DNA from: Clostridia bacterium
GTDB lineage: Bacteria; Bacillota; Clostridia; UMGS1810
Direction: 5' to 3'
Length of the DNA stretch: 64,000 nucleotides
NCBI GenBank assembly: GCA_045544515.1
Contig: JAZPZD010000015.1
Coordinates: 32,557-96,556 of the forward strand
Shown: positions 9,403-48,385 of the stretch, piece by piece
How the letters are laid out: the number at the start of each line of letters is the position of its first letter
Numbering within the stretch: the stretch's first letter is position 1
Made by a program: the position numbers and the translations under genes
The notes under the pieces: model-generated
The model's input: only the letters and a program-made list of their open reading frames with translations
What the model was told of the DNA's origin: nothing
The model's database searches: none

Positions 9403-10410
9403 TTATACTTGAAAACTGTTATAAATCAAGTCTTTGGACTTATTATGCCTACTAACCCCTTGAGTTTTCTCTTCCCAATTAAACCAGTACATATAATTAG
9501 CAAGGTATTTTGTGGCAACACCATATTTTCGTTTCATCCATAATTTCAATTTATTATGTAGTGCATTTATATGGTTTATATGATATATACCTTTTTTATG
9601 CTTACCACTATCAATTTGAACAAGGTCAGCATTAACATTTTTCGCAAATTGAATATATGCTCTATGACTGTCGGTACAGATTGTAGAAGATTGTTCAATA
9701 TTATCTTGATATGTGGCATTTAAAGCCTTTGTTGTTATTCTCCCCATACAAATAGGAACAACAACTAAACCACCATTTCTATCAACAGCAGTCGATACAC
9801 AAGTCTGTTCATGGCTGATACCTCTATAATCTATTTCTTTACCTCTTTTGTGAGATTTTCCACTATTTCTTGGTGCAATCCAATGAGGATTACCTTTCTT
9901 GTGGTTGCCCTTGAAACTTTCAGCAAAAAATGTTTCATCCATTTCAAGTACACCCTTGAGAAAATCCAATCCCATATGTTCTATCAATGCTTTTAATATC
10001 TTATGTCTCATAAAGAATGAGGTTTTCAGGGATATACCTAATGCTATTGCTGTTTCTCTCAAAGTCATTTGTTTACACATACAATCAGCATATCTAATCC
10101 AAGTAGATATTGGTAGTTTTGTATTAGCAAAAACTGTTTTGGTAAGTGCATTAAAAGTTTTACTGCAATCCTTACATAAATATCTTTGTATTCCTCTTAC
10201 TTTACCATTCTTAACAATATGCCTTTTGTTACAATGAGGACAAACCAAACCTTCTGCAAATCTTTTATCTGCGATTTCGTCTGTGGATAATTCTGCACCT
10301 ACTACTTCTATATACTCTGCTAAACTGACTGCTAATTCTGTTAATTCTTGATTTGACAACCTATTTGTCAAATCTTTTACCATGTTTTGAATATTATTTG
10401 TTATACTCAT
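9403..10410 (-). CDS. IS1595-family transposase
   Basis: Zinc ribbon CPHCNKRHIVKNGKVRGIQRYLCKDCSKTF followed by an ISXO2-like DDE core (LEMDETFF...ICTDSHRAY). The start is set at ATG 10410 behind AAGAGGTGG. Confidence 0.9.
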   Translation of the reverse strand: MSITNNIQNMVKDLTNRLSNQELTELAVSLAEYIEVVGAELSTDEIADKRFAEGLVCPHCNKRHIVKNGKVRGIQRYLCKDCSKTFNALTKTVFANTKLPISTWIRYADCMCKQMTLRETAIALGISLKTSFFMRHKILKALIEHMGLDFLKGVLEMDETFFAESFKGNHKKGNPHWIAPRNSGKSHKRGKEIDYRGISHEQTCVSTAVDRNGGLVVVPICMGRITTKALNATYQDNIEQSSTICTDSHRAYIQFAKNVNADLVQIDSGKHKKGIYHINHINALHNKLKLWMKRKYGVATKYLANYMYWFNWEEKTQGVSRHNKSKDLIYNSFQV

Positions 10411-10485
10411 TTTTACCACCTCTTAAGGTAGTAAAATAAACTGAGGTCATTTATGCATACATATGATATTTTTATGTCTATTTTA

Positions 10486-18441: not shown

Positions 18442-18531
18442 AAAAAGCCTCCTTGTGTACATATTATTTTCTACGAATACAAATTTTATTAAAAAAAGAT
18501 GTAACCAAATATGATTACATCTTTTAAAAAA

Positions 18532-20835
18532 TTATTTTTTGTCGTTATTTCTGATTTCTACTCTTCTTATCTTTCCGCTTATAGTCTTTGGCAGTTCATC
18601 TACAAAGTCTACTATTCTCGGATATTTGTAAGGTGCGGTATTGGTCTTGACATATGTCTGAATTTCTTTTTTGAGTTCGTCTGTGCCCTCTTTGCCCTTT
18701 ACAAGAACTATTGTAGCCTTTACAATCTGTCCCCTTATTTCGTCGGGAACTGCTGTGATGGCACATTCCAGAACATACGGAAGCTCCATAATTACATTTT
18801 CTATTTCAAAAGGTCCTATGCGGTATCCCGATGATTTGATTACATCGTCTATTCTGCCCACATACCAGTAGTAGCCCTCTTCGTCCTTCCACGCAAGGTC
18901 GCCTGTGTGATACATACCGTCGTGCCAAGCCTTTTTGGTGGCTTCTTCGTCTTTGTAATACTCTGTGAAAAGACCGGGGGCAATTCTCTTGTCTGTACGG
19001 ACAACGATTTCGCCTGTTTCACCGACTTCCACGCTCTTGCCCTCGTCATTTACTATGTCTATATCATACATTGGGCTGGGTTTACCCATAGAGCCGGGTT
19101 TTGCCTTCATACCTCTCAAGTTTCCTACGGTAAGGGTGGTTTCTGTCTGACCAAAGCCCTCCATAAGCTTTAAGCCTGTTGCCTTTTTCCACTGTTCATA
19201 AACCTCGGGGTTTAGTGCTTCGCCCGCTGTTGTGGAATATTCAATGGTAGACAGGTCGTATTTTGACAAATCCTCTTTGATAAAAAATCTGTACATTGTC
19301 GGAGGAGCACAGAAGGTTGTGATATTGTACTTTTTGAACATTGGCAGTATATCGCCTGCATCAAATCTGTCAAAGTCATACACAAACACAGCCGCCTCGC
19401 AAAGCCACTGACCGTAAATCTTGCCCCAGAGTGCCTTGCCCCAACCTGTATCGGAAATTGTAAAGTGAAGTCCGTCGGGGTTTACATTGTGCCAGTATTT
19501 TGCTGTGATAAAGTGACCAAGCGGATACTTGTGGCTGTGAGCAACAATCTTGGGGTAGCCTGTTGTACCCGAACTAAAGAGCATTATGAGGTGGTCATTT
19601 CCGCAGGCGGTGTCTGCCTTTCTTTCGTATACATCGCTAAAGCGGTACATCTCGCTGTCAAAGCTGTGCCAGCCCTCTCTCTCGCCATGAGAGATAACCT
19701 TGATTTCCACGCTCGGGCATTTTGCTGCCGCATTTTCTGCGTGACGGGCAGTTTCGCCGTCGGCGCTGCAAACGATAGCCTTAACCGATGCAGCGTTAAA
19801 TCTGTATTCAAAGTCGTGCTCTACAAGCTGATTTGTCGCGGGAATTGTGATTGCCCCTATCTTGTGAAGTGCAAGGATAGAGAACCAGAACTCATAGTGT
19901 CTTTTGAGTACCAGCATAACCACATCGCCCTTTTTGATGCCAAGACTTTCAAAGTAGTTAGCTGTCATATTGGAATACTTTTTGAGGTCGCTAAAGGTAA
20001 ATCTTCTTTCTGTTTTGTCTGCAGCAACATGCATCATAGCCACTTTGTCGGGGCATTTTTCTGCAAGAGCATCAACGCAGTCAAAGGCAAAGTTGAATGT
20101 ATCGTCGTTTTTGAAGCTGATTTCTTTAAGACGCTTTTTGTCGTCCTTTACAGTTTCTACAAACTTTTTGTATACAGCGGTTTTGGGCTGTTCTACAACA
20201 ATCTCCTCTTTGGTATGTTCATATGCGGGCTCGCTTATTTCCTCGCCGTGCATTACCATAGCATAGATTTCTACATCGTCTCCGCCTACGGCAACTAATG
20301 CGTGAGGCATGGTACTGTTGTAATAGATTGTGTCGCCCGGTTCGAGCACTTCTACACTGTCACCTATATAGGCCTTGAGCTTTCCGGAGATTACTATATC
20401 AAACTCCTGACCGCTGTGTGTTGCATAATGAGGATTTTTTTCATCCTCTTCACTATACGGGATTTTTACCCAAAACGGCTCTGCAACTTTTTTCTTAAAC
20501 ATTGCCGCAAGGTTTTTGTATGTGTAGCCCTCTCTTCTTGTAATGGGCAGACCCTCGCCTTTTCGGGTTAATTCGTAGCCGGACAGTGTGGGGCTTGAGC
20601 CTTTCAAAAGGTCTGTGGGGTCCACATTAAACGCCTTGGCACATTTGTATATAAATGTAAAGTTAAAATCCCTCTTGCCGCTTTCATATTCCTTGTAATC
20701 ATCTACGCTGACGCCTGTATTTTTTGCCATTTCTTCCACAGAGAGCGAAAGCAATTCTCTCGTTTCTTTAATACGCAGGGCAACCTCCATAAGCTGCTTT
20801 AATTCCTGCGCTTCCATAAATACTTCTCCGTTCAT
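18532..20835 (-). CDS. fusion protein: XRE-type HTH + cupin domain + AMP-forming (ACSM/MACS-like) acyl-CoA synthetase
   Basis: 767 aa. The N-terminus LSLSVEEMAKNTGVSVDDYKEYESGKR is an HTH. HSGQEFDIVISGKLKAYIG...GDTIYYNSTMPHA is a cupin. LFSSGTTGYPKIVAHSH, YHTGD and SSGYRIGPFEIE are adenylate-forming core motifs. Confidence 0.85.
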   Translation of the reverse strand: MNGEVFMEAQELKQLMEVALRIKETRELLSLSVEEMAKNTGVSVDDYKEYESGKRDFNFTFIYKCAKAFNVDPTDLLKGSSPTLSGYELTRKGEGLPITRREGYTYKNLAAMFKKKVAEPFWVKIPYSEEDEKNPHYATHSGQEFDIVISGKLKAYIGDSVEVLEPGDTIYYNSTMPHALVAVGGDDVEIYAMVMHGEEISEPAYEHTKEEIVVEQPKTAVYKKFVETVKDDKKRLKEISFKNDDTFNFAFDCVDALAEKCPDKVAMMHVAADKTERRFTFSDLKKYSNMTANYFESLGIKKGDVVMLVLKRHYEFWFSILALHKIGAITIPATNQLVEHDFEYRFNAASVKAIVCSADGETARHAENAAAKCPSVEIKVISHGEREGWHSFDSEMYRFSDVYERKADTACGNDHLIMLFSSGTTGYPKIVAHSHKYPLGHFITAKYWHNVNPDGLHFTISDTGWGKALWGKIYGQWLCEAAVFVYDFDRFDAGDILPMFKKYNITTFCAPPTMYRFFIKEDLSKYDLSTIEYSTTAGEALNPEVYEQWKKATGLKLMEGFGQTETTLTVGNLRGMKAKPGSMGKPSPMYDIDIVNDEGKSVEVGETGEIVVRTDKRIAPGLFTEYYKDEEATKKAWHDGMYHTGDLAWKDEEGYYWYVGRIDDVIKSSGYRIGPFEIENVIMELPYVLECAITAVPDEIRGQIVKATIVLVKGKEGTDELKKEIQTYVKTNTAPYKYPRIVDFVDELPKTISGKIRRVEIRNNDKK

Positions 20836-20879
20836 AAGTTACCATCCTTTCCAAAGTGCTTCGGCGGTAATTTTTGAAA

Positions 20880-21165
20880 ATAAAAAATTCCGCCTCAAAG
20901 AATCCTTTGAGACGGAATATATATTCCGCGGTACCACTCAAATTGCATAAGTCTTACCTTATGCCACTCACAGACTCCAACAAGTCCTATGCACTAACGC
21001 AGCATCTCTCGGGATACGCCTACTTGGGACAAAGCCCTTTGGGATATCCGGCTCGGAAGTGATGGGTCATTGGGAAGTTCAGTCATTGGCTCGCAGCAAC
21101 CGCCAACTCTCTCAAAACCTTGCAACCCGACCGTCTTCGTCACAGCCTTTCAATATTAAACTATG
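20880..21165 (-). promoter_or_regulatory. T-box riboswitch leader, probable Ile (AUC) specifier
   Basis: Minus-strand read: K-turn GGCUGUGA.../...CCGAGCC, AGAGAG bulge, distal loop GGUUGCUGCGA, specifier loop ...CCC-AUC-A (plus 21061-21063), AGUA-II box, GCGUUAG F-box-like element, T-box GAGUGGUACCGCGG (20937-20927), and terminator CCGTCTCAAAGG...CTTTGAGGCGG plus a U-run. Confidence 0.8.
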
Positions 21166-21170
21166 GGAAC

Positions 21171-21199
21171 ATATTATCACATTTAAAAAACATTGTCAA
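21171..21199 (-). promoter_or_regulatory. sigmaA-type promoter of the T-box leader
   Basis: TTGACA, 17 nt, TAATAT. Confidence 0.5.
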
Positions 21200-27713: not shown

Positions 27714-29243
27714 TCAGTCGCCAATCTTTTCTTCCATTTCCTTTTGTACTTCAGGAATAGCTGACAAAATCGGAGCAACATCTTTTCCTTTTATTTTTCT
27801 GTCAATATAGTTTTTGGTAATCTTCATTACTGTTCCCGAAAGAACCACAACGCCGATAAGGTTGGGTATCATCATAAGTCCGTTGAATGTGTCAGAAATA
27901 TCCCAAGCAAGTGACGATGTAAGAAGTGCACCAAACATAATCATAACAAGGTGGATTACCTTGTAAACCTTGATTGTCTTTACGCCAAAGAGGTATTCCC
28001 AAGCCTTTGAACCGTAGTGGTCCCAGCCAAGAACTGTGGTAAAAGCAAAGAGAAGTATTGCAATAGCCACAAACTTACCGCCGATATTTGCAAAGCCAAA
28101 TACTGTGTTGAATGCATCAGCAACAAGTGTTGCATCGCCTGTGATTGTACCCATAGGAGCTGTAATGTCATAAACGCCCGATGTAAGAACTACAAGTGCT
28201 GTAAGAGTACAAACAACCATTGTGTCTGCAAATACTTCAAATATTCCCCACATACCCTGCTGAACAGGTTCTTTTACGCTGGAGTTGGAGTGAACCATTA
28301 CCGAGGAACCAAGACCAGCCTCGTTGGAGAATACTCCACGCTTGAAGCCCTGAACCATAACCTCGCGGATAATAGCACCTGTAACACCGCCGGCAATGGA
28401 AATAGGCTTAAATGCTGTAACAAATATAGCCTTGAATGCAGGAAGTATGTTTGCATAGTTTATGCCAACGATAACAATGCTTCCCAAGATAAAGAGAACA
28501 ACCATAAAGGGAACTACTTTTTCTGCAAATGCAGCAATTCTCTTGAGACCGCCAAGAACTATAAGAGCTGCTATTACAACAAGAACTATGCCGATTATTA
28601 CAGAATAGAGTGTAACACCTTCGTAGAGCGAAATATTTACAAGTGACTGTATGGGGAATGCAGACTCTATGTTTACAACGATTTTGTTAATCTGACCCAT
28701 TGCACCGATACCAAATGATGCAAGAAGTGTAAATATGGAGAAGAGCACTGCCAAAACCTTGCCTATTGTCTTGCAACCTTTTTTGGAGCCAAGACCGTCA
28801 CGGAGATAATACATAGCACCGCCGGACCATTCGCCGTCAGCATTCTTGCGGCGATAGTAGATACCGAGGACATTTTCGGAATAGTTTGTCATCATACCGA
28901 AAAATGCCGCAATCCACATCCAGAAAACCGCACCGGGTCCGCCTATGCAGATAGCTGCAGCAACACCGGCAATGTTACCTACGCCGATTGTAGCAGCAAG
29001 AGCTGTACAAAGAGCCTGGAAAGGGGAAATGGACTTGTCTTTGGAGTGTCCTATAACATCTTTGTTAAAAAGACTTCCGATAGTTTTTCTCCACCAAAGT
29101 CCGAGATGCGAAATCTGGAAAACCTTGGTGATAACCGTTGTGAGTACTCCTGTAAAAAGAAGAAGTACAAGACCGAGAGTTGTCCATACAAAAGTGTTAA
29201 TTTCACCATTGTACTGTTCGAGTGCACTTAAAAATTGTGTCAT
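27714..29243 (-). CDS. alanine/glycine:cation symporter (AGCS family)
   Basis: Start MTQFLSALEQ behind GAAAGGTGG. Contains ...SPFQALCTALAATIGVGNIAGVAAAI..GGPGAVFWMW... Confidence 0.9.
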   Translation of the reverse strand: MTQFLSALEQYNGEINTFVWTTLGLVLLLFTGVLTTVITKVFQISHLGLWWRKTIGSLFNKDVIGHSKDKSISPFQALCTALAATIGVGNIAGVAAAICIGGPGAVFWMWIAAFFGMMTNYSENVLGIYYRRKNADGEWSGGAMYYLRDGLGSKKGCKTIGKVLAVLFSIFTLLASFGIGAMGQINKIVVNIESAFPIQSLVNISLYEGVTLYSVIIGIVLVVIAALIVLGGLKRIAAFAEKVVPFMVVLFILGSIVIVGINYANILPAFKAIFVTAFKPISIAGGVTGAIIREVMVQGFKRGVFSNEAGLGSSVMVHSNSSVKEPVQQGMWGIFEVFADTMVVCTLTALVVLTSGVYDITAPMGTITGDATLVADAFNTVFGFANIGGKFVAIAILLFAFTTVLGWDHYGSKAWEYLFGVKTIKVYKVIHLVMIMFGALLTSSLAWDISDTFNGLMMIPNLIGVVVLSGTVMKITKNYIDRKIKGKDVAPILSAIPEVQKEMEEKIGD

Positions 29244-29278
29244 GGTATGTAACCACCTTTCAAAAATTAATAAAAATA

Positions 29279-29512
29279 GCCGCCACAAATAATGGCGACT
29301 CCGGAATTTAGATGCAGACTATACCTGTGCTGTTATTAAAAGTATCTGCTCCGTCCTTTTGCCTGAGAGATTCGGTTTTTTGATAAAAACCTTGCACCTT
29401 CGGCACCCGTTATGTCGGGATTCTCCGGATTGCCATCGGATTACAGTCCTGCCGGAATATCGGCACCTGAGAGTGTTACTCCTTCGGTAAGGCAAAGCCT
29501 TTTTCCTGCAAC
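29279..29512 (-). promoter_or_regulatory. tandem glycine riboswitch with terminator expression platform
   Basis: Minus-strand read. Aptamer 1: ...GCCUUACCGAAGGAGUAACACUCUCAGGUGCC..GGCAGGAC. Aptamer 2: CCGGAGAAUCCCG..CGGGUGCCGAAGGUGCAAGG..CUCUCAGGCAAAAGGACGGAG. Then GTCGCC-ATTATTTGT-GGCGGC plus a U-rich tract immediately before the RBS. Confidence 0.8.
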
Positions 29513-29657: not shown

Positions 29658-31016
29658 GTGAATTTGTTTTTTACACTTGTATCATTTATTAATTCTGCCC
29701 TTACGGACTATGTGCTCATCGTTATGCTTGTGTCGGCAGGGGTGTTTTTTTCTTTTTTGACCCGCTTTGTTCAGGTTCGTTTCTTTAAAACAGGCATCAG
29801 AATGCTATGCTCGGGGCTAAAGCAAAAACAATCATCTCAAAAAGGAATAAACTCCTTTCAGGCACTAATGACCTCTATCGCCGCACAGATAGGCATAGGC
29901 AACATTGTGGGTGTGTGCGGTGCCCTGATCACCGGCGGTCCCGGGGCAATATTATGGATGTGGATAATTGCTTTTTTTGGTATGGCAACAATATACGCCG
30001 AGGCGGTGCTTGCCATAAAAACCAGAAAATGCGAAAAAGACGGCACCTACACAGGAGGCCCCGTCTATTACATAAAAAAAGCATTTCCAAAAGGCTATGC
30101 CGACAAATTCTTTGCCGTATCGGCAATGCTTGCACTGGGATTTATGGGGTGTATGGTGCAGTCCAACGCTATGTGCTCATCTATTTGTCAGGCATTTAAC
30201 ACCGATATTTACACAACTGCCATTGTGATTACCGTATGCTCTGCATTGGTATTTTGGGGCGGGATTAAAAGAATTGCCAAAGTGACCGAAAAAATAGTGC
30301 CATTTATGGCGATGCTGTATATATTCGGATGCCTTGCCGTTATAATATGCAGAATAAAGTATATCCCCGAAACTTTTTGCCTAATAATAAAATATGCATT
30401 TAATCCCAATGCAATAATAGGCGGCAGCCTTGGGGGTGCTCTTAAAATCGCAATAAGTCAGGGTGCAAAGAGGGGGCTTTTTTCCAACGAAGCAGGTATG
30501 GGCTCCACCCCGCACGCCCACGCCTCTGCAAATGTAAAAGATGCGCACACCCAGGGAGTTGCGGCAATGATGGGGGTTTTTGCAGATACCTTTGTAATTC
30601 TTACAATGACAGCTCTGGCGGTCGTATCGACAATGTATGCAGGAGGCGGTCCCCTATCTCAGAATGCTCTGCCAATTTCCTCTTTGGGAATAGACAAAAA
30701 CAATATGATGCAGATATGCGTGGGCACCACCCTTTCAAGCTCTTACCTTGGAAATGTGTTCGTGTCGTTGTGCCTTTCGCTCTTTGCTTTTTCAAGCGTG
30801 ATATGTTGGAACTATTTTGGCAAAATAAATGCAGTATATCTTATGGGCAAAAAAATAGTTCCTGTATATATGCTCCTATCTGCTGTGTCGATTTTCCTCG
30901 GCTCTGTTTTGTCGTCGGACTTTGTATGGGAGATGGCAGATTTATTTACAAATCTTATGGTTATACCAAATGTGCTGTCCCTTTTTGTACTGCATAAATC
31001 GGTTTCCAATAATTGA
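29658..31016 (+). CDS. alanine/glycine:cation symporter (AGCS family), second paralog
   Basis: ...NSFQALMTSIAAQIGIGNIVGVCGALITGGPGAILWMW...; divergent from the first paralog. Confidence 0.9.
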   Translation: MNLFFTLVSFINSALTDYVLIVMLVSAGVFFSFLTRFVQVRFFKTGIRMLCSGLKQKQSSQKGINSFQALMTSIAAQIGIGNIVGVCGALITGGPGAILWMWIIAFFGMATIYAEAVLAIKTRKCEKDGTYTGGPVYYIKKAFPKGYADKFFAVSAMLALGFMGCMVQSNAMCSSICQAFNTDIYTTAIVITVCSALVFWGGIKRIAKVTEKIVPFMAMLYIFGCLAVIICRIKYIPETFCLIIKYAFNPNAIIGGSLGGALKIAISQGAKRGLFSNEAGMGSTPHAHASANVKDAHTQGVAAMMGVFADTFVILTMTALAVVSTMYAGGGPLSQNALPISSLGIDKNNMMQICVGTTLSSSYLGNVFVSLCLSLFAFSSVICWNYFGKINAVYLMGKKIVPVYMLLSAVSIFLGSVLSSDFVWEMADLFTNLMVIPNVLSLFVLHKSVSNN

Positions 31017-42523: not shown

Positions 42524-43090
42524 TTATATGTTGTATCCCAAATCAAACGCCTTGAGATTAACCTCGAGGAATTTGGGGGGAACAGTGGTCTTTATTGTTT
42601 CTACCCATTTTTCATAAGCGATATCGGTGTTTTTCGCCATAACGCCGATAAGAACAACATTAACCGCCTTGATGTTGCCTGCCTCTTTGGCAAGAGAGAG
42701 AGCATCTATTACACTTATATCCAGCTTTTCGCTGATTTTCTGCTCGATATTTTCGGGGTACTTCATAGCACCTGTAATTACGGGCATAGGATTGATGTTT
42801 TGTCCGTTTGCAATGAGCTTGCCGCCTTCTTTGAGATACGGAATTGCTCTGTATGCCTCGAGCATTTCAAAGGCAAGAATAATATCTGCCTCGCCCTCAT
42901 CGATTATAGGCGAATAAACCTTGTCGCCGTACTTTACATAGGTTACCACGCTTCCGCCTCGCTGGCTCATACCGTGTACCTCGGAAACCTTTACATCGTA
43001 GCCTTCGTTTATTACTGTATTTCCTAAAATTCTGCTGGCAAGAAGAGTACCCTGACCGCCAACGCCTACTATCATAATATTTTTAGTCAT
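42524..43090 (-). CDS. iorB: indolepyruvate:ferredoxin oxidoreductase subunit beta
   Basis: MTKNIMIVGVGGQGTLLASRILG..., 188 aa, AGGAGG RBS, follows iorA. Confidence 0.85.
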   Translation of the reverse strand: MTKNIMIVGVGGQGTLLASRILGNTVINEGYDVKVSEVHGMSQRGGSVVTYVKYGDKVYSPIIDEGEADIILAFEMLEAYRAIPYLKEGGKLIANGQNINPMPVITGAMKYPENIEQKISEKLDISVIDALSLAKEAGNIKAVNVVLIGVMAKNTDIAYEKWVETIKTTVPPKFLEVNLKAFDLGYNI

Positions 43091-43103: not shown

Positions 43104-44837
43104 CTACTCTTCTTTTTCTATTGCACCAAACGGGCAAACATTTACGCAAAGTCCGCAGCCGTTGCACTGGGTTGCATCTATTACAACTTTGTCATCTTTG
43201 ATGCTTATTGCAGGACAGCCAAGCTTCATACACATCTTGCAGTTTTTGCACTTGTCGGTAATAGTGCAGTGTCCTATATATTTTACACTCTTTAAAAGTG
43301 CGCAGGGTCTCTGGGCTATTATTACAGAGGGTTCTTCCCTTTCTACCTCGGTCTTTACAACCTTTTCAAATTCCTTTACATCAAAGGGGTCGCAAACTAC
43401 AACATGATCTATACCCACAGCCTTGCAAAGAGCAACGAGGTTAACCTGCTTGGTTTCTTCGCCTCTTATTGTGTAGCCTGTGGTGGGGTTATCCTGGTGG
43501 CCTGTCATACCTGTTATGGAGTTATCCAGGATTATTACGGTGTTATTGCCCTTGTTGTACACGATATCCACAAGACCTGTGATACCCGAATGCATAAAGG
43601 TGGAGTCGCCTATTACAGAAACGAGCTTTTTGTTAAACTCGCTGCCTCTCGCCTTTGCCATACCGTGAGCCGCACTTACAGATGCTCCCATACAGATGGT
43701 GGTATCAACCGACTGCAGAGGCGCTACTGCACCTAATGTGTAACAGCCTATATCGCCCGAAACCACAAGACCGAGCTTCTTTAGTACATAGAATGTTCCT
43801 CTGTGAGGGCATCCTGCACACATAACAGGCGGTCTTACGGGGATTGGCTCATCTATTGCGGCCTTGGAGGGTGCATCTTCATTAAGAACTGCCTTTTTAA
43901 TCATATTGGGGGTGTATTCGCCAAGGAGTGTAAACACATCTTTGCCTGTAACATCAAGACCGAGAGCTTTGCAGTGGTCCTCAATTACGGGGTCTAATTC
44001 TTCTATAACATATACCTTGTCATATTTGTTGGCAAAGTCTATAATCTTCTTTTCGGGCAGCGGATAAACCATACCGAGCTTCAAGAAGTCCGCCTTGTCG
44101 CCGAGGGCTTCTTTGGCATACATATATGCAACACCTGCTGTAATTACGCCAATCTTTGAGCCGTTTTCTTCTACACTGTTAAGGGGTGTGGTTTCTGCAA
44201 ATTCTTTTAACGCCTTTATTCTGTCTTCTACCACAACATGACGCTTGATAGCATTTGCAGGCATCATTACAAACTTGCCTATGTTCTTTTCGTAGTCCTT
44301 AACCTGTGCATCTTTTCTTTCGCCAAGTTCCACTAAACTCTGCGAGTGCGAAACTCTGGTGGAAAGACGGATAAATGCAGGTGTGTCAAACTCTTCCGAA
44401 AGTTCAAACGCCATACGGGTGTATTCCTTACATTCCATAGAGTCGGCAGGCTCGAGCATCATAATCTTCGATGCCTTGGCATAGTGTCTGGAATCCTGCT
44501 CGTTCTGTGACGAGTGCATACCGGGGTCGTCTGCAACACAAAATACAAGTCCGCCGTTTACACCTGTGTAGCTTACGGTAAACACGGGGTCTGCCATTAC
44601 ATTAAGACCTACATGCTTCATACAGCTCATAGCTCTTGCTCCGCCGATTGATGCACCTATTGCAACCTCTGCGGCAACCTTTTCGTTGGGTGACCACTCT
44701 GCATATATTTCTTCAAACTTTACTATTTCTTCTGTTATTTCTGTACTTGGAGTACCGGGATATGATGCAACAACATTTACCCCCGCCTCATACGCGCCTC
44801 GCGCTACGGCAGCGTTACCGAGTAACAATTTTTTCAT
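43104..44837 (-). CDS. iorA: indolepyruvate:ferredoxin oxidoreductase subunit alpha
   Basis: 577 aa. TPP-type 2-oxoacid:Fd oxidoreductase body (GDIGCYTLG, GDSTFMHSG) plus C-terminal 2x[4Fe-4S] motifs CKNCKMCMKLGCP / CNGCGLCVNVCP. Confidence 0.9.
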   Translation of the reverse strand: MKKLLLGNAAVARGAYEAGVNVVASYPGTPSTEITEEIVKFEEIYAEWSPNEKVAAEVAIGASIGGARAMSCMKHVGLNVMADPVFTVSYTGVNGGLVFCVADDPGMHSSQNEQDSRHYAKASKIMMLEPADSMECKEYTRMAFELSEEFDTPAFIRLSTRVSHSQSLVELGERKDAQVKDYEKNIGKFVMMPANAIKRHVVVEDRIKALKEFAETTPLNSVEENGSKIGVITAGVAYMYAKEALGDKADFLKLGMVYPLPEKKIIDFANKYDKVYVIEELDPVIEDHCKALGLDVTGKDVFTLLGEYTPNMIKKAVLNEDAPSKAAIDEPIPVRPPVMCAGCPHRGTFYVLKKLGLVVSGDIGCYTLGAVAPLQSVDTTICMGASVSAAHGMAKARGSEFNKKLVSVIGDSTFMHSGITGLVDIVYNKGNNTVIILDNSITGMTGHQDNPTTGYTIRGEETKQVNLVALCKAVGIDHVVVCDPFDVKEFEKVVKTEVEREEPSVIIAQRPCALLKSVKYIGHCTITDKCKNCKMCMKLGCPAISIKDDKVVIDATQCNGCGLCVNVCPFGAIEKEE

Positions 44838-46517: not shown

Positions 46518-48062
46518 TTACTCGCCGAGAGATTTCTTGGCAAAAACCACAACCTCGCGGTCATAACATACAAACATTTCTTCTGTCTTTTGTGCGTCCA
46601 TTTTAGGTGTAACAAGGCTCACTATCGGCACTATTACAAGGCCGCCGAGCATTGCTATAACACCGCAGTTAATGGGAGACTGGAGTATAACGGGAAATGC
46701 GGGTCTAAACAGCATATTAAGTATCATTATACCTGCACCGAATACAAAGCTTATCCATACAGACGCTTTGGTTGCCTTTTTCCAGTACAAGCCATATAAG
46801 AACGGTGCTAAAAATGCCCCTGCCAAAGCACCCCAGGATATACCCATCATATCGGCAATGGCACTTAATTTGTCTTTGTTAAGTGCAATATATGCAGATA
46901 TTACAATGAATACTACTATGAGAACTCTCATTATGAAAACCTGTTTTTTGTCTGTCATATTCTTTACAATGTGGTCTTTTAAAAGGTCCAGTGTAAGAGT
47001 GGAACTCGACGCCAGTACAAGTGAAGAAAGTGTAGACATAGATGCCGAAAGCACCAGTATTATAACAACTGCAATGAGTATATCGGGAAGTCCCGAAAGC
47101 ATTGTGGGAATAATTGCATCAAATCCGCCCTCGATAGAGCCATCGGCAAGAAATGTTAGTTTGTCTGTAAAGAGTCTTCCGAAACCGCCGAGGAAATAAC
47201 AACCTCCTGCAACGACAAGAGCAAACACTGTGGAAATGATTGTACCCTTGGTGATATCCTTTTCGCTCTTTATGGCGTAGAACTTCTGCACCATCTGCGG
47301 AAGTCCCCAGGTGCCAAGCGATGTGAGTATTACTACAAACAAAAGATTTAACGGGTCGGGTCCGAAGAATGAATTAAAAGCACCCGGTGCCATACCCTCT
47401 CCCTCAATCTGTGCAAGTCCGTTTAAGGAAGCTATAAAACCTCCGTTTTTGGAAAGGACTGCAGCAATAACAGCAACAATTCCAAAGAGCATTATGATAC
47501 CCTGGATAAAGTCATTGATTGCAGTTGCCATATATCCGCCTGCTATAACATAGATACCCGTAAGTACTGCCATAATTATTACGCACATAGAGTAATCTAT
47601 GCTTGGAAACGCCATAGAGAAAAGTCTGGAAAGACCGTTGTACAGCGATGCGGTGTACGGTATAAGGAATACAAAAACTATAACCGATGCCGCGATTTTT
47701 AGTGCAGGACTTAAGAACCTTTTGCCAAAGAATTCGGGCATTGTGGCACTGGATAAGTGTTGGCTCATAAGTCGTGTTCTTCTGCCTAATACTATCCAGG
47801 CAAGAAGAGAGCCCAAAACGGCATTGCCTATGCCTATCCAGGTTGACGCTATGCCGAACTTCCAGCCAAACTGACCTGCATATCCTACAAATATAACAGC
47901 GGAAAAATACGATGTTCCGTATGCAAAAGCGGTAAGCCAGGGACCTACCGAACGGCCGCCTAACACAAAACCGCTGACATCTGTGGAATTCTTACGGCAG
48001 TAAAGCCCTACCGCAATCATAACCGCGAAGAAAACAATGAGTAAACCTAATTTCAGTAACAT
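46518..48062 (-). CDS. sodium:solute symporter (SSS) family transporter
   Basis: Start MLLKLGLLIVFF behind AAAGGGTGG. About 13 TM helices. ...GGRSVGPWLTAFAYGTSYFSAVIFVGYAG... is typical of SSS. Confidence 0.85.
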   Translation of the reverse strand: MLLKLGLLIVFFAVMIAVGLYCRKNSTDVSGFVLGGRSVGPWLTAFAYGTSYFSAVIFVGYAGQFGWKFGIASTWIGIGNAVLGSLLAWIVLGRRTRLMSQHLSSATMPEFFGKRFLSPALKIAASVIVFVFLIPYTASLYNGLSRLFSMAFPSIDYSMCVIIMAVLTGIYVIAGGYMATAINDFIQGIIMLFGIVAVIAAVLSKNGGFIASLNGLAQIEGEGMAPGAFNSFFGPDPLNLLFVVILTSLGTWGLPQMVQKFYAIKSEKDITKGTIISTVFALVVAGGCYFLGGFGRLFTDKLTFLADGSIEGGFDAIIPTMLSGLPDILIAVVIILVLSASMSTLSSLVLASSSTLTLDLLKDHIVKNMTDKKQVFIMRVLIVVFIVISAYIALNKDKLSAIADMMGISWGALAGAFLAPFLYGLYWKKATKASVWISFVFGAGIMILNMLFRPAFPVILQSPINCGVIAMLGGLVIVPIVSLVTPKMDAQKTEEMFVCYDREVVVFAKKSLGE

Positions 48063-48096
48063 TTTTACCACCCTTTCTAAAATTCAGGGCGAAAAC

Positions 48097-48385
48097 AAAA
48101 AAATCCCGCCCTCAAGAAATAAATCCAGAGGACGAGATATAATCTCGCGGTACCACCTCAGTTTATCGGTTTCTCACAAAACCGACCTCATCAGGTACTA
48201 AATAATACCTTAGTTCTATAACGGGAACTCCCGTTGCAGCCTACTTGGACAAACGCCCTTTTGGTGCACTGCTCGCAAGATGTATTCGGATATGCCATCG
48301 TCATTGCCTCGCACCACCCGGCAACTCTCTCCAAACTCAAAACACGCCTACTTGTTCTCGGTCATCGCATTTTCTTATGAAATTA
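48097..48385 (-). promoter_or_regulatory. T-box riboswitch leader, Tyr (UAC) specifier
   Basis: Minus-strand read: K-turn UGCGAUGA/CGAGCA, S-turn AGUA/GAA, AGAGAG bulge, distal loop GGGUGGUGCGA, specifier loop GAA-UAC-A (plus 48282-48284), AGUA-II box, CCGUUA F-box, T-box GGUGGUACCGCG (48157-48146), terminator CTCGTCCTC...GAGGGCGGG plus U7. Confidence 0.85.

Follow-up and report, generated by a model that had tools for sequence, protein, structure and literature searches.

What does a protein that joins a helix-turn-helix (HTH), a cupin and an acyl-coenzyme A (CoA) synthetase do behind a T-box riboswitch, and for which amino acid is it made? The question is raised by a minus-strand locus of a Clostridia bacterium (assembly GCA_045544515.1, contig JAZPZD010000015.1), which lies in a stretch of 64,000 nucleotides that was analysed as a whole and is called the window below. 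In this locus, a full-length T-box leader precedes a single gene for a fusion protein of 767 amino acids (aa). Our answer, to which we give a probability of roughly 0.6, is that an isoleucine-specific, transcription-attenuating T-box controls a short branched-chain acyl-CoA synthetase, which likely serves the synthesis of isoleucine from 2-methylbutyrate.

The leader and its specifier codon

A first-pass annotation of this DNA had proposed a promoter, a T-box leader, a terminator and one long open reading frame (ORF) for the locus, and all of them were found in place by Rfam, by scans and by Pfam (Table 1). The -35 context of the promoter, ACTATTGACAA, was found again in many orthologous loci. 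The terminator hairpin of the leader is present in both the minimum-free-energy and the centroid fold. Its 14-bp stem and the conserved T-box sequence have a CCGUCUC segment in common, so that antiterminator and terminator exclude each other. The UGGU bulge of the leader would pair with the ACCA 3' end of a tRNA, which fits a discriminator A. Because a hairpin and a T-run come after the stop codon, the fusion gene is monocistronic; this second terminator is missing from the consensus scan list, as its stem contains too few G-C pairs. The flanking genes are unrelated, with a GDPD phosphodiesterase upstream and spoVAC/spoVAD downstream, and a tRNA-Ile gene was not found within the 64-kb window.

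Relatives of the fusion are encoded in at least 595 GTDB species genomes, as indicated by a scan of one genome per species, and the leader survey below draws on the best 80 loci from these genomes; related loci are written L with a number. The hosts of the best 80 are Oscillospiraceae, Acutalibacteraceae, Ruminococcus, Neglectibacter and other Clostridia, from gut and rumen samples. Among the matches listed, the nearest relative of the window protein comes from a Clostridia metagenome-assembled genome (L001, 84% protein identity). For this class of leader, the Rfam gathering threshold of 93 bits proved overly strict: it gave no T-box for 12 loci, among them L080, where one is plainly present. 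The leaders were therefore surveyed with nhmmer profiles and the core motif. A profile from orthologous leaders matches 64 of the 80 loci, and the T-box core TGGTACCGCG occurs at most 400 nt upstream of the fusion gene in 63 of the 80. When only the 71 loci with enough upstream sequence are counted, the core is present in 60 and absent from 11. In Stem I, RNAalifold predicted 19 pairs from 40 distinct orthologous sequences, with compensatory changes in 16 of the 19.

The leader has much in common with other members of the T-box family RF00230, as for example the tyrS and ileS leaders of B. subtilis. It shares with them the K-turn, specifier loop, AG bulge and distal loop of Stem I, the UGGUACCGCG T-box bulge, the mutually exclusive antiterminator and terminator, and a specifier ending in C and followed by a purine. 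Typical T-boxes control an aminoacyl-tRNA synthetase, a biosynthetic operon or a transporter, whereas the gene controlled here encodes an acid-activating CoA ligase.

The first-pass annotation had read the specifier as AUC, and had flagged this call as insecure because the leader lacks the AGUA S-turn. The lack is real. The 5' side of the specifier loop, GAAGACGGUC, carries a 4-nt deletion relative to the Rfam model (GAAGACG----GUC), its 3' side reads AUGACCC, and the same S-turn variant is kept across orthologous leaders. This is a variant of the loop, and the leader stays in the T-box family. The codon call itself gained considerable strength. In the Rfam alignment, which the annotation had suggested as a check, GAA-UAC-A of a tyrosine leader found in the same window aligns with GACCC-AUC-A of the isoleucine leader, placing AUC on UAC. 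A MAFFT alignment of the leaders gave ATC for 61 of 62 evaluable sequences (window included) and GTA for one. The three bases on the 5' side of the triplet are free to vary in these 62 leaders (CCC, CTT, CCT, CAC, CCA, GCT, TGT, CAA, TCG). The base on its 3' side is A in 40, C in 17, G in four and T in one; T-boxes usually keep a purine there, and the frequent C, like the missing AGUA, sets these leaders apart from canonical T-boxes. According to RNAalifold, the triplet and one further base lie directly 5' of a covarying GAAG/CUUC helix (40 Stem I sequences), which is the canonical specifier position. Because the triplet is invariant amid varying flanks and sits at the canonical position beside a covarying helix, we regard the AUC (isoleucine) specifier as established by these alignments.

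The same comparison bears on a shifted register, in which another overlapping triplet of the loop GACCCAUCA (CAU for histidine, CCA or CCC for proline, ACC for threonine, UCA for serine) would name a different amino acid. The non-canonical S-turn invites such a reading, as the register is not readable from the AGUA/GAA landmarks alone. It is effectively refuted, though, by the constancy of A-U-C alone across the 62 leaders, by the adjoining covarying helix, placed as in canonical T-boxes, and by paralogues that have GUA at the same position.

Table 1. Features of the isoleucine T-box locus and of the tyrosine T-box operon in the window
Feature	Position	Strand	Basis and remarks
Sigma-70-type promoter TTGACA-17-TAATAT, TG extension 5' of the -10 box	21171..21199	-	Consensus scan, 10/12 matches
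Full-length T-box leader, Rfam RF00230	20905..21152	-	cmscan 94.8 bits vs gathering score 93, E 1.7e-19, model positions 1-219
Stem I with K-turn, specifier loop, AGAGAG bulge, distal loop	21050..21147	-	Rfam alignment and 40-sequence Stem I alignment
K-turn UGUGA / CGA	21140-21144 / 21053-21055	-	Rfam alignment
AGAGAG bulge	21107-21112	-	Rfam alignment
Specifier codon AUC (isoleucine), A next at 21060, then GAAG/CUUC helix	21061..21063	-	Rfam alignment, 62-leader comparison
Conserved T-box sequence AAUUUGAGUGGUACCGCGG, 5' side of antiterminator	20925..20943	-	Sequence and Rfam alignment
Intrinsic leader terminator, 14-bp stem AUUCCGUCUCAAAG/CUUUGAGGCGGAAU, then U-tract	20877..20918	-	Terminator scan (20918-20887)
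Ribosome-binding site AAAGGA, 9 nt 5' of the ATG at 20835	20845..20850	-	Direct sequence reading
HTH-cupin-acyl-CoA-synthetase fusion ORF, 767 aa, monocistronic	18532..20835	-	ORF list, translation, Pfam
XRE-type HTH (HTH_19/HTH_3), aa 21-79	20599..20775	-	Pfam HTH_19 40.9 bits, HTH_3 38.2 bits
Cupin_2, aa 135-192; His140, Glu144, His178 conserved	20260..20433	-	Pfam 40.2 bits
Acyl-CoA synthetase: AMP-binding aa 258-617, AMP-binding_C aa 677-755	18571..20064	-	Pfam 213 and 76.8 bits
Gene terminator, AAGAUGUAA...UUACAUCUU hairpin, then seven U	18491..18523	-	Direct sequence reading
Tyrosine T-box, specifier UAC	48125-48374	-	Rfam 118 bits; heads a four-gene operon
Na+/solute symporter	46518-48071	-	Tyrosine T-box operon
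CoA ligase, 545 aa	44854-46491	-	Tyrosine T-box operon; 27% identical to the fusion's synthetase
IorA	43104-44837	-	TIGR03336, 752 bits vs cut-off 651
IorB	42524-43090	-	NF005325, 294 bits vs cut-off 230

The synthetase, its predicted substrate and the fate of the product

By homology, the C-terminal 520 residues of the fusion are a short branched-chain acyl-CoA synthetase of the MacsMa/MbcS type. The translation contains the synthetase motifs SSGTTGYPK, YHTGD and PKTISGKIRR, and the closest solved structure is that of MacsMa from M. acetivorans (PDB 3ETC, E 2e-198), with 282 identities in 528 aligned columns (53%). MacsMa prefers 2-methylbutyrate, the sole acid with a completed CoA step, makes adenylates from C3 to C8 acids, propionate included, and has Trp259 and a Gly in place of Acs Trp416 as named determinants of the acyl pocket (PMC10455477). 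Both determinants are kept in the window protein, where W470 aligns with Trp259 and G562 with the Gly found where Acs has its acetate-pocket Trp416, and both are invariant in 19 homologues. MacsMa differs in being archaeal and in being without an HTH-cupin module, and T-box control, a mechanism of bacteria, has not been reported for it.

Among curated families, the best NCBIfam match of the synthetase is MbcS (NF047394, 464 bits). MbcS of S. aureus is selective for 2-methylbutyrate and isobutyrate, and poor on isovalerate (PMC10026030), a selectivity that mirrors the isoleucine and valine T-boxes found on the family studied here. MbcS is different in being a single-module protein for fatty-acid primers, and the MbcS literature found mentions no riboswitch. 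Thus, the two experimentally known relatives use acids matching isoleucine and valine, which fits the two specifiers found on the family, where leucine does not occur.

The valine specifiers belong to paralogues of the fusion. T-boxes with GUA were detected at L063, L073, L077, L079 and L080, in tandem with the isoleucine copy in four of the five. L063, L073 and L079 each carry two tandem fusion copies with a T-box of their own, the first reading AUC and the second GUA followed by G. At L077, the GUA T-box lies 3' of the isoleucine copy, just before the contig end, and at L080 the fusion copy found there has the GUA T-box. The three GUA copies that were aligned (L080, L073b and L079b) share 73-77% identity among themselves and no more than 70% with the AUC copies, and the AUC copies of L073 and L079 are 74% identical to each other; the two types are therefore old paralogous lineages. 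Only two synthetase positions, G466A and T566S, set the three aligned GUA copies apart from all 57 AUC copies. They lie four residues before W470 and four residues after G562, respectively, and the Gly-to-Ala change beside the pocket would fit a smaller substrate in the valine copies. No family copy was found behind a leucine T-box among the loci surveyed.

An ORF of about 220 aa lies close to, or overlaps, the 3' end of the valine-type copies (L063 5659-6321, L073 10963-11625, L079 10894-11574). For L073 only weak P-loop NTPase hits were obtained, and for L079 no Pfam hit. This ORF may encode a dedicated partner of the valine paralogue.

A comparable logic is visible elsewhere in the window, where the tyrosine T-box heads an operon for a symporter, a CoA ligase and the two subunits IorA and IorB, both scoring above their family cut-offs. 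The natural reading of this operon is the uptake, CoA activation and reductive carboxylation of an arylacetate to an arylpyruvate and on to tyrosine, under tyrosine demand. As an example of acid salvage under a T-box in this same organism, it supports the same reading for the isoleucine gene.

The proposed switch follows the established T-box mechanism. The sigma-70 promoter would fire constitutively, and Stem I would show AUC to the anticodon of tRNA-Ile(GAU). If this tRNA is uncharged, its free ACCA end would pair with UGGU in the T-box bulge and stabilise the antiterminator, the 14-bp terminator would be blocked, and RNA polymerase would enter the gene. If it is charged, transcription would end at about position 20877. 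The enzyme would then, as its most likely reaction, convert 2-methylbutyrate, ATP and CoA to 2-methylbutyryl-CoA. A 2-oxoacid:ferredoxin oxidoreductase encoded elsewhere would reductively carboxylate this product to 2-oxo-3-methylvalerate, and transamination would yield isoleucine. The sister paralogue under valine (GUA) T-boxes would do likewise for isobutyrate. We consider 2-methylbutyrate as the substrate, and isoleucine supply by reductive carboxylation as the purpose, to be well-supported predictions. Activation of a short branched acid for isoleucine supply had also been the first-pass proposal, and it is backed, by way of homologues, by the 53% identity to MacsMa, the MbcS match, the paralogues under valine T-boxes and the tyrosine T-box operon.

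Several observations weigh against this account. The Rfam score of the leader is just over the threshold (94.8 against 93 bits), and its S-turn departs from the canonical AGUA (5') and GAA (3'). The synthetase stays below the equivalog cut-off of MbcS (464 against 850 bits), which makes it a relative of MbcS and not an equivalog, and MbcS itself supplies fatty-acid primers and not amino-acid synthesis (PMC10026030). No VOR or POR gene was found in the window, and no conserved oxidoreductase neighbour in the related loci. Eleven of the 71 loci with enough upstream sequence are without a T-box. The Congzhengia orthologue (L081/L082 8941-12271) lies 3' of a DAHP synthase gene, at a distance of 32 nt and with a plain promoter, which is a misfit with an isoleucine-only account. 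The T-box-less loci, Congzhengia and a Ruminococcus group among them, indicate that the enzyme is not always tied to isoleucine sensing. Finally, both the substrate and its metabolic fate are inferred from homologues.

Another fate of the product and another substrate have to be weighed against this account. With the same switch and the same enzyme, the product could mainly serve as primer for anteiso and iso branched-chain fatty acids, as 2-methylbutyryl-CoA and, from the valine paralogue, as isobutyryl-CoA. Such primers normally come from isoleucine and valine, so that scarcity of these amino acids would call for acid salvage. The best NCBIfam match, MbcS, plays this role in S. aureus with the same selectivity for 2-methylbutyrate and isobutyrate, and no oxidoreductase gene is linked to the isoleucine-controlled gene. 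Rumen ruminococci put branched acids into lipids and amino acids alike. T-box regulons, however, concern almost entirely amino-acid supply, and IorAB in the tyrosine T-box operon of the window points to the synthesis of a 2-oxoacid, hence of an amino acid. We therefore consider a mainly lipid fate rather unlikely; the two fates are non-exclusive, as their first step is common. Very unlikely, in our view, is the activation of propionate, from which propionyl-CoA would be carboxylated reductively to 2-oxobutyrate and enter the ordinary ilv pathway to isoleucine. An isoleucine-specific T-box would fit this route as well, and MacsMa adenylates C3 to C8 acids including propionate, but it finishes the CoA step with 2-methylbutyrate only (PMC10455477). 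Moreover, propionate would leave the paralogues under valine T-boxes unexplained.

The HTH-cupin module

The HTH-cupin-synthetase fusion is real. All of its Pfam domains score above the curated cut-offs, confirming the HTH, cupin and AMP-binding parts that had been read from the sequence in the first pass. An assembly or frameshift artefact is excluded because more than 120 full-length database proteins (756-791 aa, 68-89% identity) share the same four Pfam domains, and because relatives occur in the at least 595 species genomes. The source name of these more than 120 proteins is only 'AMP-binding protein'. A full-length AlphaFold2 model (767 aa, 19 similar sequences) was poor, with a mean predicted local distance difference test (pLDDT) of 59.8, and was not used.

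The module evolves faster than the synthetase, with a mean pairwise identity of about 58% against about 76%, yet it is clearly constrained. It also exists on its own. Stand-alone HTH-cupin proteins of 182-199 aa are 36-48% identical to the module, and HMMER retrieved 611 cluster representatives at E <=1e-10, many of them of about 185 aa. Four stand-alone HTH-cupin genes could be placed on contigs, and each has, 3-125 nt downstream of it, a gene for an AMP-binding protein of 548-567 aa that likewise stands alone. The one such synthetase that was compared, from L083, is 57% identical to that of the window. L087 carries two HTH-cupin/synthetase pairs in tandem, and at L085 a split pair with a gap of 2 nt lies behind a T-box with an AUC specifier. 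As judged from these arrangements, the module is an obligate partner of this synthetase lineage, either fused to it or encoded directly upstream. The split arrangement fits both an XRE-cupin 'local functional unit' and a two-subunit enzyme. We lean towards the latter, though not strongly, because of the co-transcription with a 2-nt gap at L085 and the acidic helix described below.

At L083/L084 (6001-12549), a split pair heads a cluster with FdtA, a DegT aminotransferase, a possible acyltransferase and several glycosyltransferases. This suggests that the pair supplies acyl-CoA for sugar N-acylation in another lineage.

The cupin part has a set of conserved residues. Across 29 diverse homologues, His140, Gly142, Glu144 and His178 do not vary. 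In 41 further sequences, including stand-alone ones, H140, G142, Q143 and E144 are invariant and H178 is conserved in at least 90%. A PDB profile search with the module gave 1Y9Q, an HTH_3-cupin protein deposited as a transcriptional regulator, as best match (E 2e-8), and HppE with a full-length alignment (E 6e-6). In the profile alignment, His140, Glu144 and His178 align with His, Glu and His of HppE, which we take to be its 2-His-1-Glu iron ligands. An AlphaFold2 model of residues 1-215 was good (pLDDT 88.1), and Foldseek placed HppE on top with it (E 7e-14), followed by 1Y9Q (E 5.5e-13), with HEPD, MPnS and Psf4 also among the hits. The module thus shares with HppE, Psf4, HEPD and MPnS the combination of an HTH-like domain and a cupin, and probably binds a metal and a small ligand. 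The differences from these enzymes are substantial. The identity is only 18-20%, and the hosts here are strict anaerobes, spore-forming Clostridia, whereas HppE-type enzymes use O2 or H2O2 on phosphonates. No phosphonate genes were found in the window or the related loci. The module was not assigned to the HppE/HEPD/MPnS family.

The HTH part is unusually acidic. The recognition helix of the window protein reads S-V-D-D-Y-K-E-Y-E, and the consensus is [ST]-x-[DE]-[DE]-Y-x-x-x-E. In 78 homologues, the mean net charge is -2.4 for residues 42-52 and -4.2 for the whole HTH region. At the aligned positions, 1Y9Q has S-K-A-M-L-G-Q-I-E and a PbsX-family regulator S-R-Q-T-I-N-A-L-E; the enzyme MPnS has S-I-E-E-I, and so shows the same S-x-E-E pattern in its pseudo-recognition helix. 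Net charge is a weak test of DNA binding, with values on the aligned fragments of about +1 for the PbsX-family regulator and about +4 for 1Y9Q, against -4.2 for the family.

These features bear on a further idea of the first-pass annotation, a BirA-like regulator whose DNA binding is gated by substrate or adenylate. The likeness to BirA is one of concept only, that of an adenylate-forming enzyme with an N-terminal DNA-binding fold. The two proteins are not homologous, BirA being a class II aminoacyl-tRNA synthetase-like ligase with a winged helix, and DNA binding is doubtful here. The acidic helix, the operator search without a find at the promoter of the window and the equally good match to HppE offer the analogy no positive support, and it is unsupported so far.

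More generally, the protein might be a bifunctional enzyme and repressor, in which the XRE-cupin part stays on an operator, in its own promoter or in others, until the acid or acyl-adenylate occupies the cupin or the synthetase. Combined with the T-box, this would give a two-input control by substrate availability and isoleucine demand. We consider this possible but doubtful. In its favour, HTH_3/HTH_19 and Cupin_2 are all over the Pfam thresholds, and the best PDB profile match, 1Y9Q, is the modelling template for the XRE-cupin factor ErfA (PMC7901475). XRE-cupin factors are local repressors of adjacent enzyme genes and sense a pathway precursor (PMC7901475). The fold of 1Y9Q, the domains HTH_3 and Cupin_2, and stand-alone relatives beside an enzyme gene (here directly upstream of stand-alone synthetases) are what the module has in common with such factors (PauR, PsdR and ErfA of P. 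aeruginosa, PuuR of E. coli). Palindromes over the -10 box were also seen, though only in some T-box-less loci, CTGCAA-N18-TTGCAG in Congzhengia and AGTGCT-N17-AGCACT in L023. On the other side, the module is fused to an enzyme here, and its recognition helix has a conserved acidic S-x-[DE]-[DE]-Y where 1Y9Q, the PbsX-family regulator and 434 repressor have K/R/Q/T. The negative charge of the whole HTH region points the same way, and exposed helix positions differ among orthologues with the same leader. No operator was found: an inverted-repeat search of 58 promoter regions returned mostly trivial A/T runs as best hits, and the promoter of the window had no significant inverted repeat, nor anything comparable to the palindromes of the T-box-less loci. 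The L085 pair, co-transcribed behind its T-box, looks like subunits, and the HppE-type enzymes, with an HTH-like domain that is not known to bind DNA, match equally well. Taken together, a regulatory or accessory role without DNA binding is somewhat more likely for the module than that of an operator-binding repressor, and this is the weakest step of our analysis. Similarly tentative is the proposal that the fused XRE-cupin is a sensor of the branched acid, or of a metal-acid complex, which would act, in a 'trigger enzyme', either on its own promoter as a repressor or on the synthetase as an allosteric gate.

Other sequence elements around the leader were noted in the course of the promoter comparison. 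A conserved 5' element, ATTTGAATATCACAAA, was discarded: its complementarity to the stretch that follows the terminator is confined to one clade, and in the window it is insignificant. In about 28 of 58 T-box loci (L019, L021, L022, L026, L027, L030, L036, L046, L048, L058, L076, L078 and others), AAATTTGAATATCACAAAAAACGA is near-invariant between the -10 box and Stem I and complementary to the sequence from the terminator U-tract onward, for example in L022 (5652-5667/5929-5944). The duplex z-scores are -3 to -6, and other clades retain the complementarity with different sequences. In the window, the element does not reach significance. It could form a long-range helix around the entire T-box, or represent two DNA sites in inverted orientation.

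Neighbouring leaders and meaning of the finding

The related loci contain other leaders and operons. Ruminococcus-type orthologues (L043, L056, L057, L064, L068, L035, L038) have no T-box and share a promoter and a 5' untranslated region of about 110 nt with hairpins. This region, about 200 nt upstream of the gene, starts with (T)ATGTAAGC and ends with GAAAGGAG(C/A)AGGCTTGCTATG. It had no Rfam match at the gathering threshold and may be a different, undescribed leader. In Congzhengia, a stand-alone HTH_3 gene of 99 aa lies just upstream. A leucine (CUC) T-box operon lies directly upstream of the isoleucine-T-box fusion gene at L027 (1614-5588), L030, L044, L066, L076 and L079, with its T-box about 4.3 kb upstream. 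It encodes a LeuA-like protein (HMGL-like and LeuA_dimer, about 460-490 aa) and a protein of 820-830 aa in which a xylose-isomerase-like TIM barrel is joined to an AMP-binding enzyme, followed at L076 and L079 by an Amidohydro_2 protein. A leucine specifier for the HTH-cupin-synthetase fusion was rejected, as the CUC T-boxes of these six loci lie far upstream and belong to this other operon.

Elsewhere in the window there are spore genes and genes for SLH-domain proteins. An aptamer of the glycine riboswitch class (60.2 bits; 29343-29438, minus strand) lies upstream of a Na+/alanine symporter-family gene (27714-29288, minus strand), and a second gene of this symporter family is divergent to it (29658-31016). 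The only mobile-element gene seen in the window is an IS1595-type (ISXO2-like) transposase ORF (9403-10419, minus strand).

That rumen and gut anaerobes make isoleucine, valine, leucine and the aromatic amino acids out of acids from fermentation has been known since the 1960s; the synthesis of isoleucine from 2-methylbutyrate in rumen bacteria was reportedly described by Allison and co-workers in that decade. The genes for the activation step are poorly defined in Oscillospiraceae and Ruminococcaceae. Full-text literature searches found no paper that links T-boxes to such acyl-CoA synthetases or to IOR operons, and none on branched-acid activation genes in ruminococci. Within the literature searched, the system looks undescribed.

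The T-box specifiers act as built-in labels, which would assign one synthetase lineage to isoleucine, its paralogue to valine, and the IorAB operon of the same window to tyrosine. In this way, an old physiological observation may be connected to named genes with predicted substrates, for example in the cultured carrier Neglectibacter timonensis, and the T-box regulon would be extended to the salvage of fermentation acids. The analysis also draws attention to a very widespread protein of three modules, the HTH-cupin part included, which occurs in at least 595 species under no more specific name than 'AMP-binding protein'. If the fused module is indeed a sensor, expression and activity would need isoleucine demand, read by the T-box, and substrate, read by the cupin, together. 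The HTH-cupin module and the MacsMa-type synthetase would then form a previously unrecognised regulatory-enzymatic unit, fused or split and set in several gene contexts, standing behind isoleucine and valine T-boxes as well as in a glycan-synthesis cluster.

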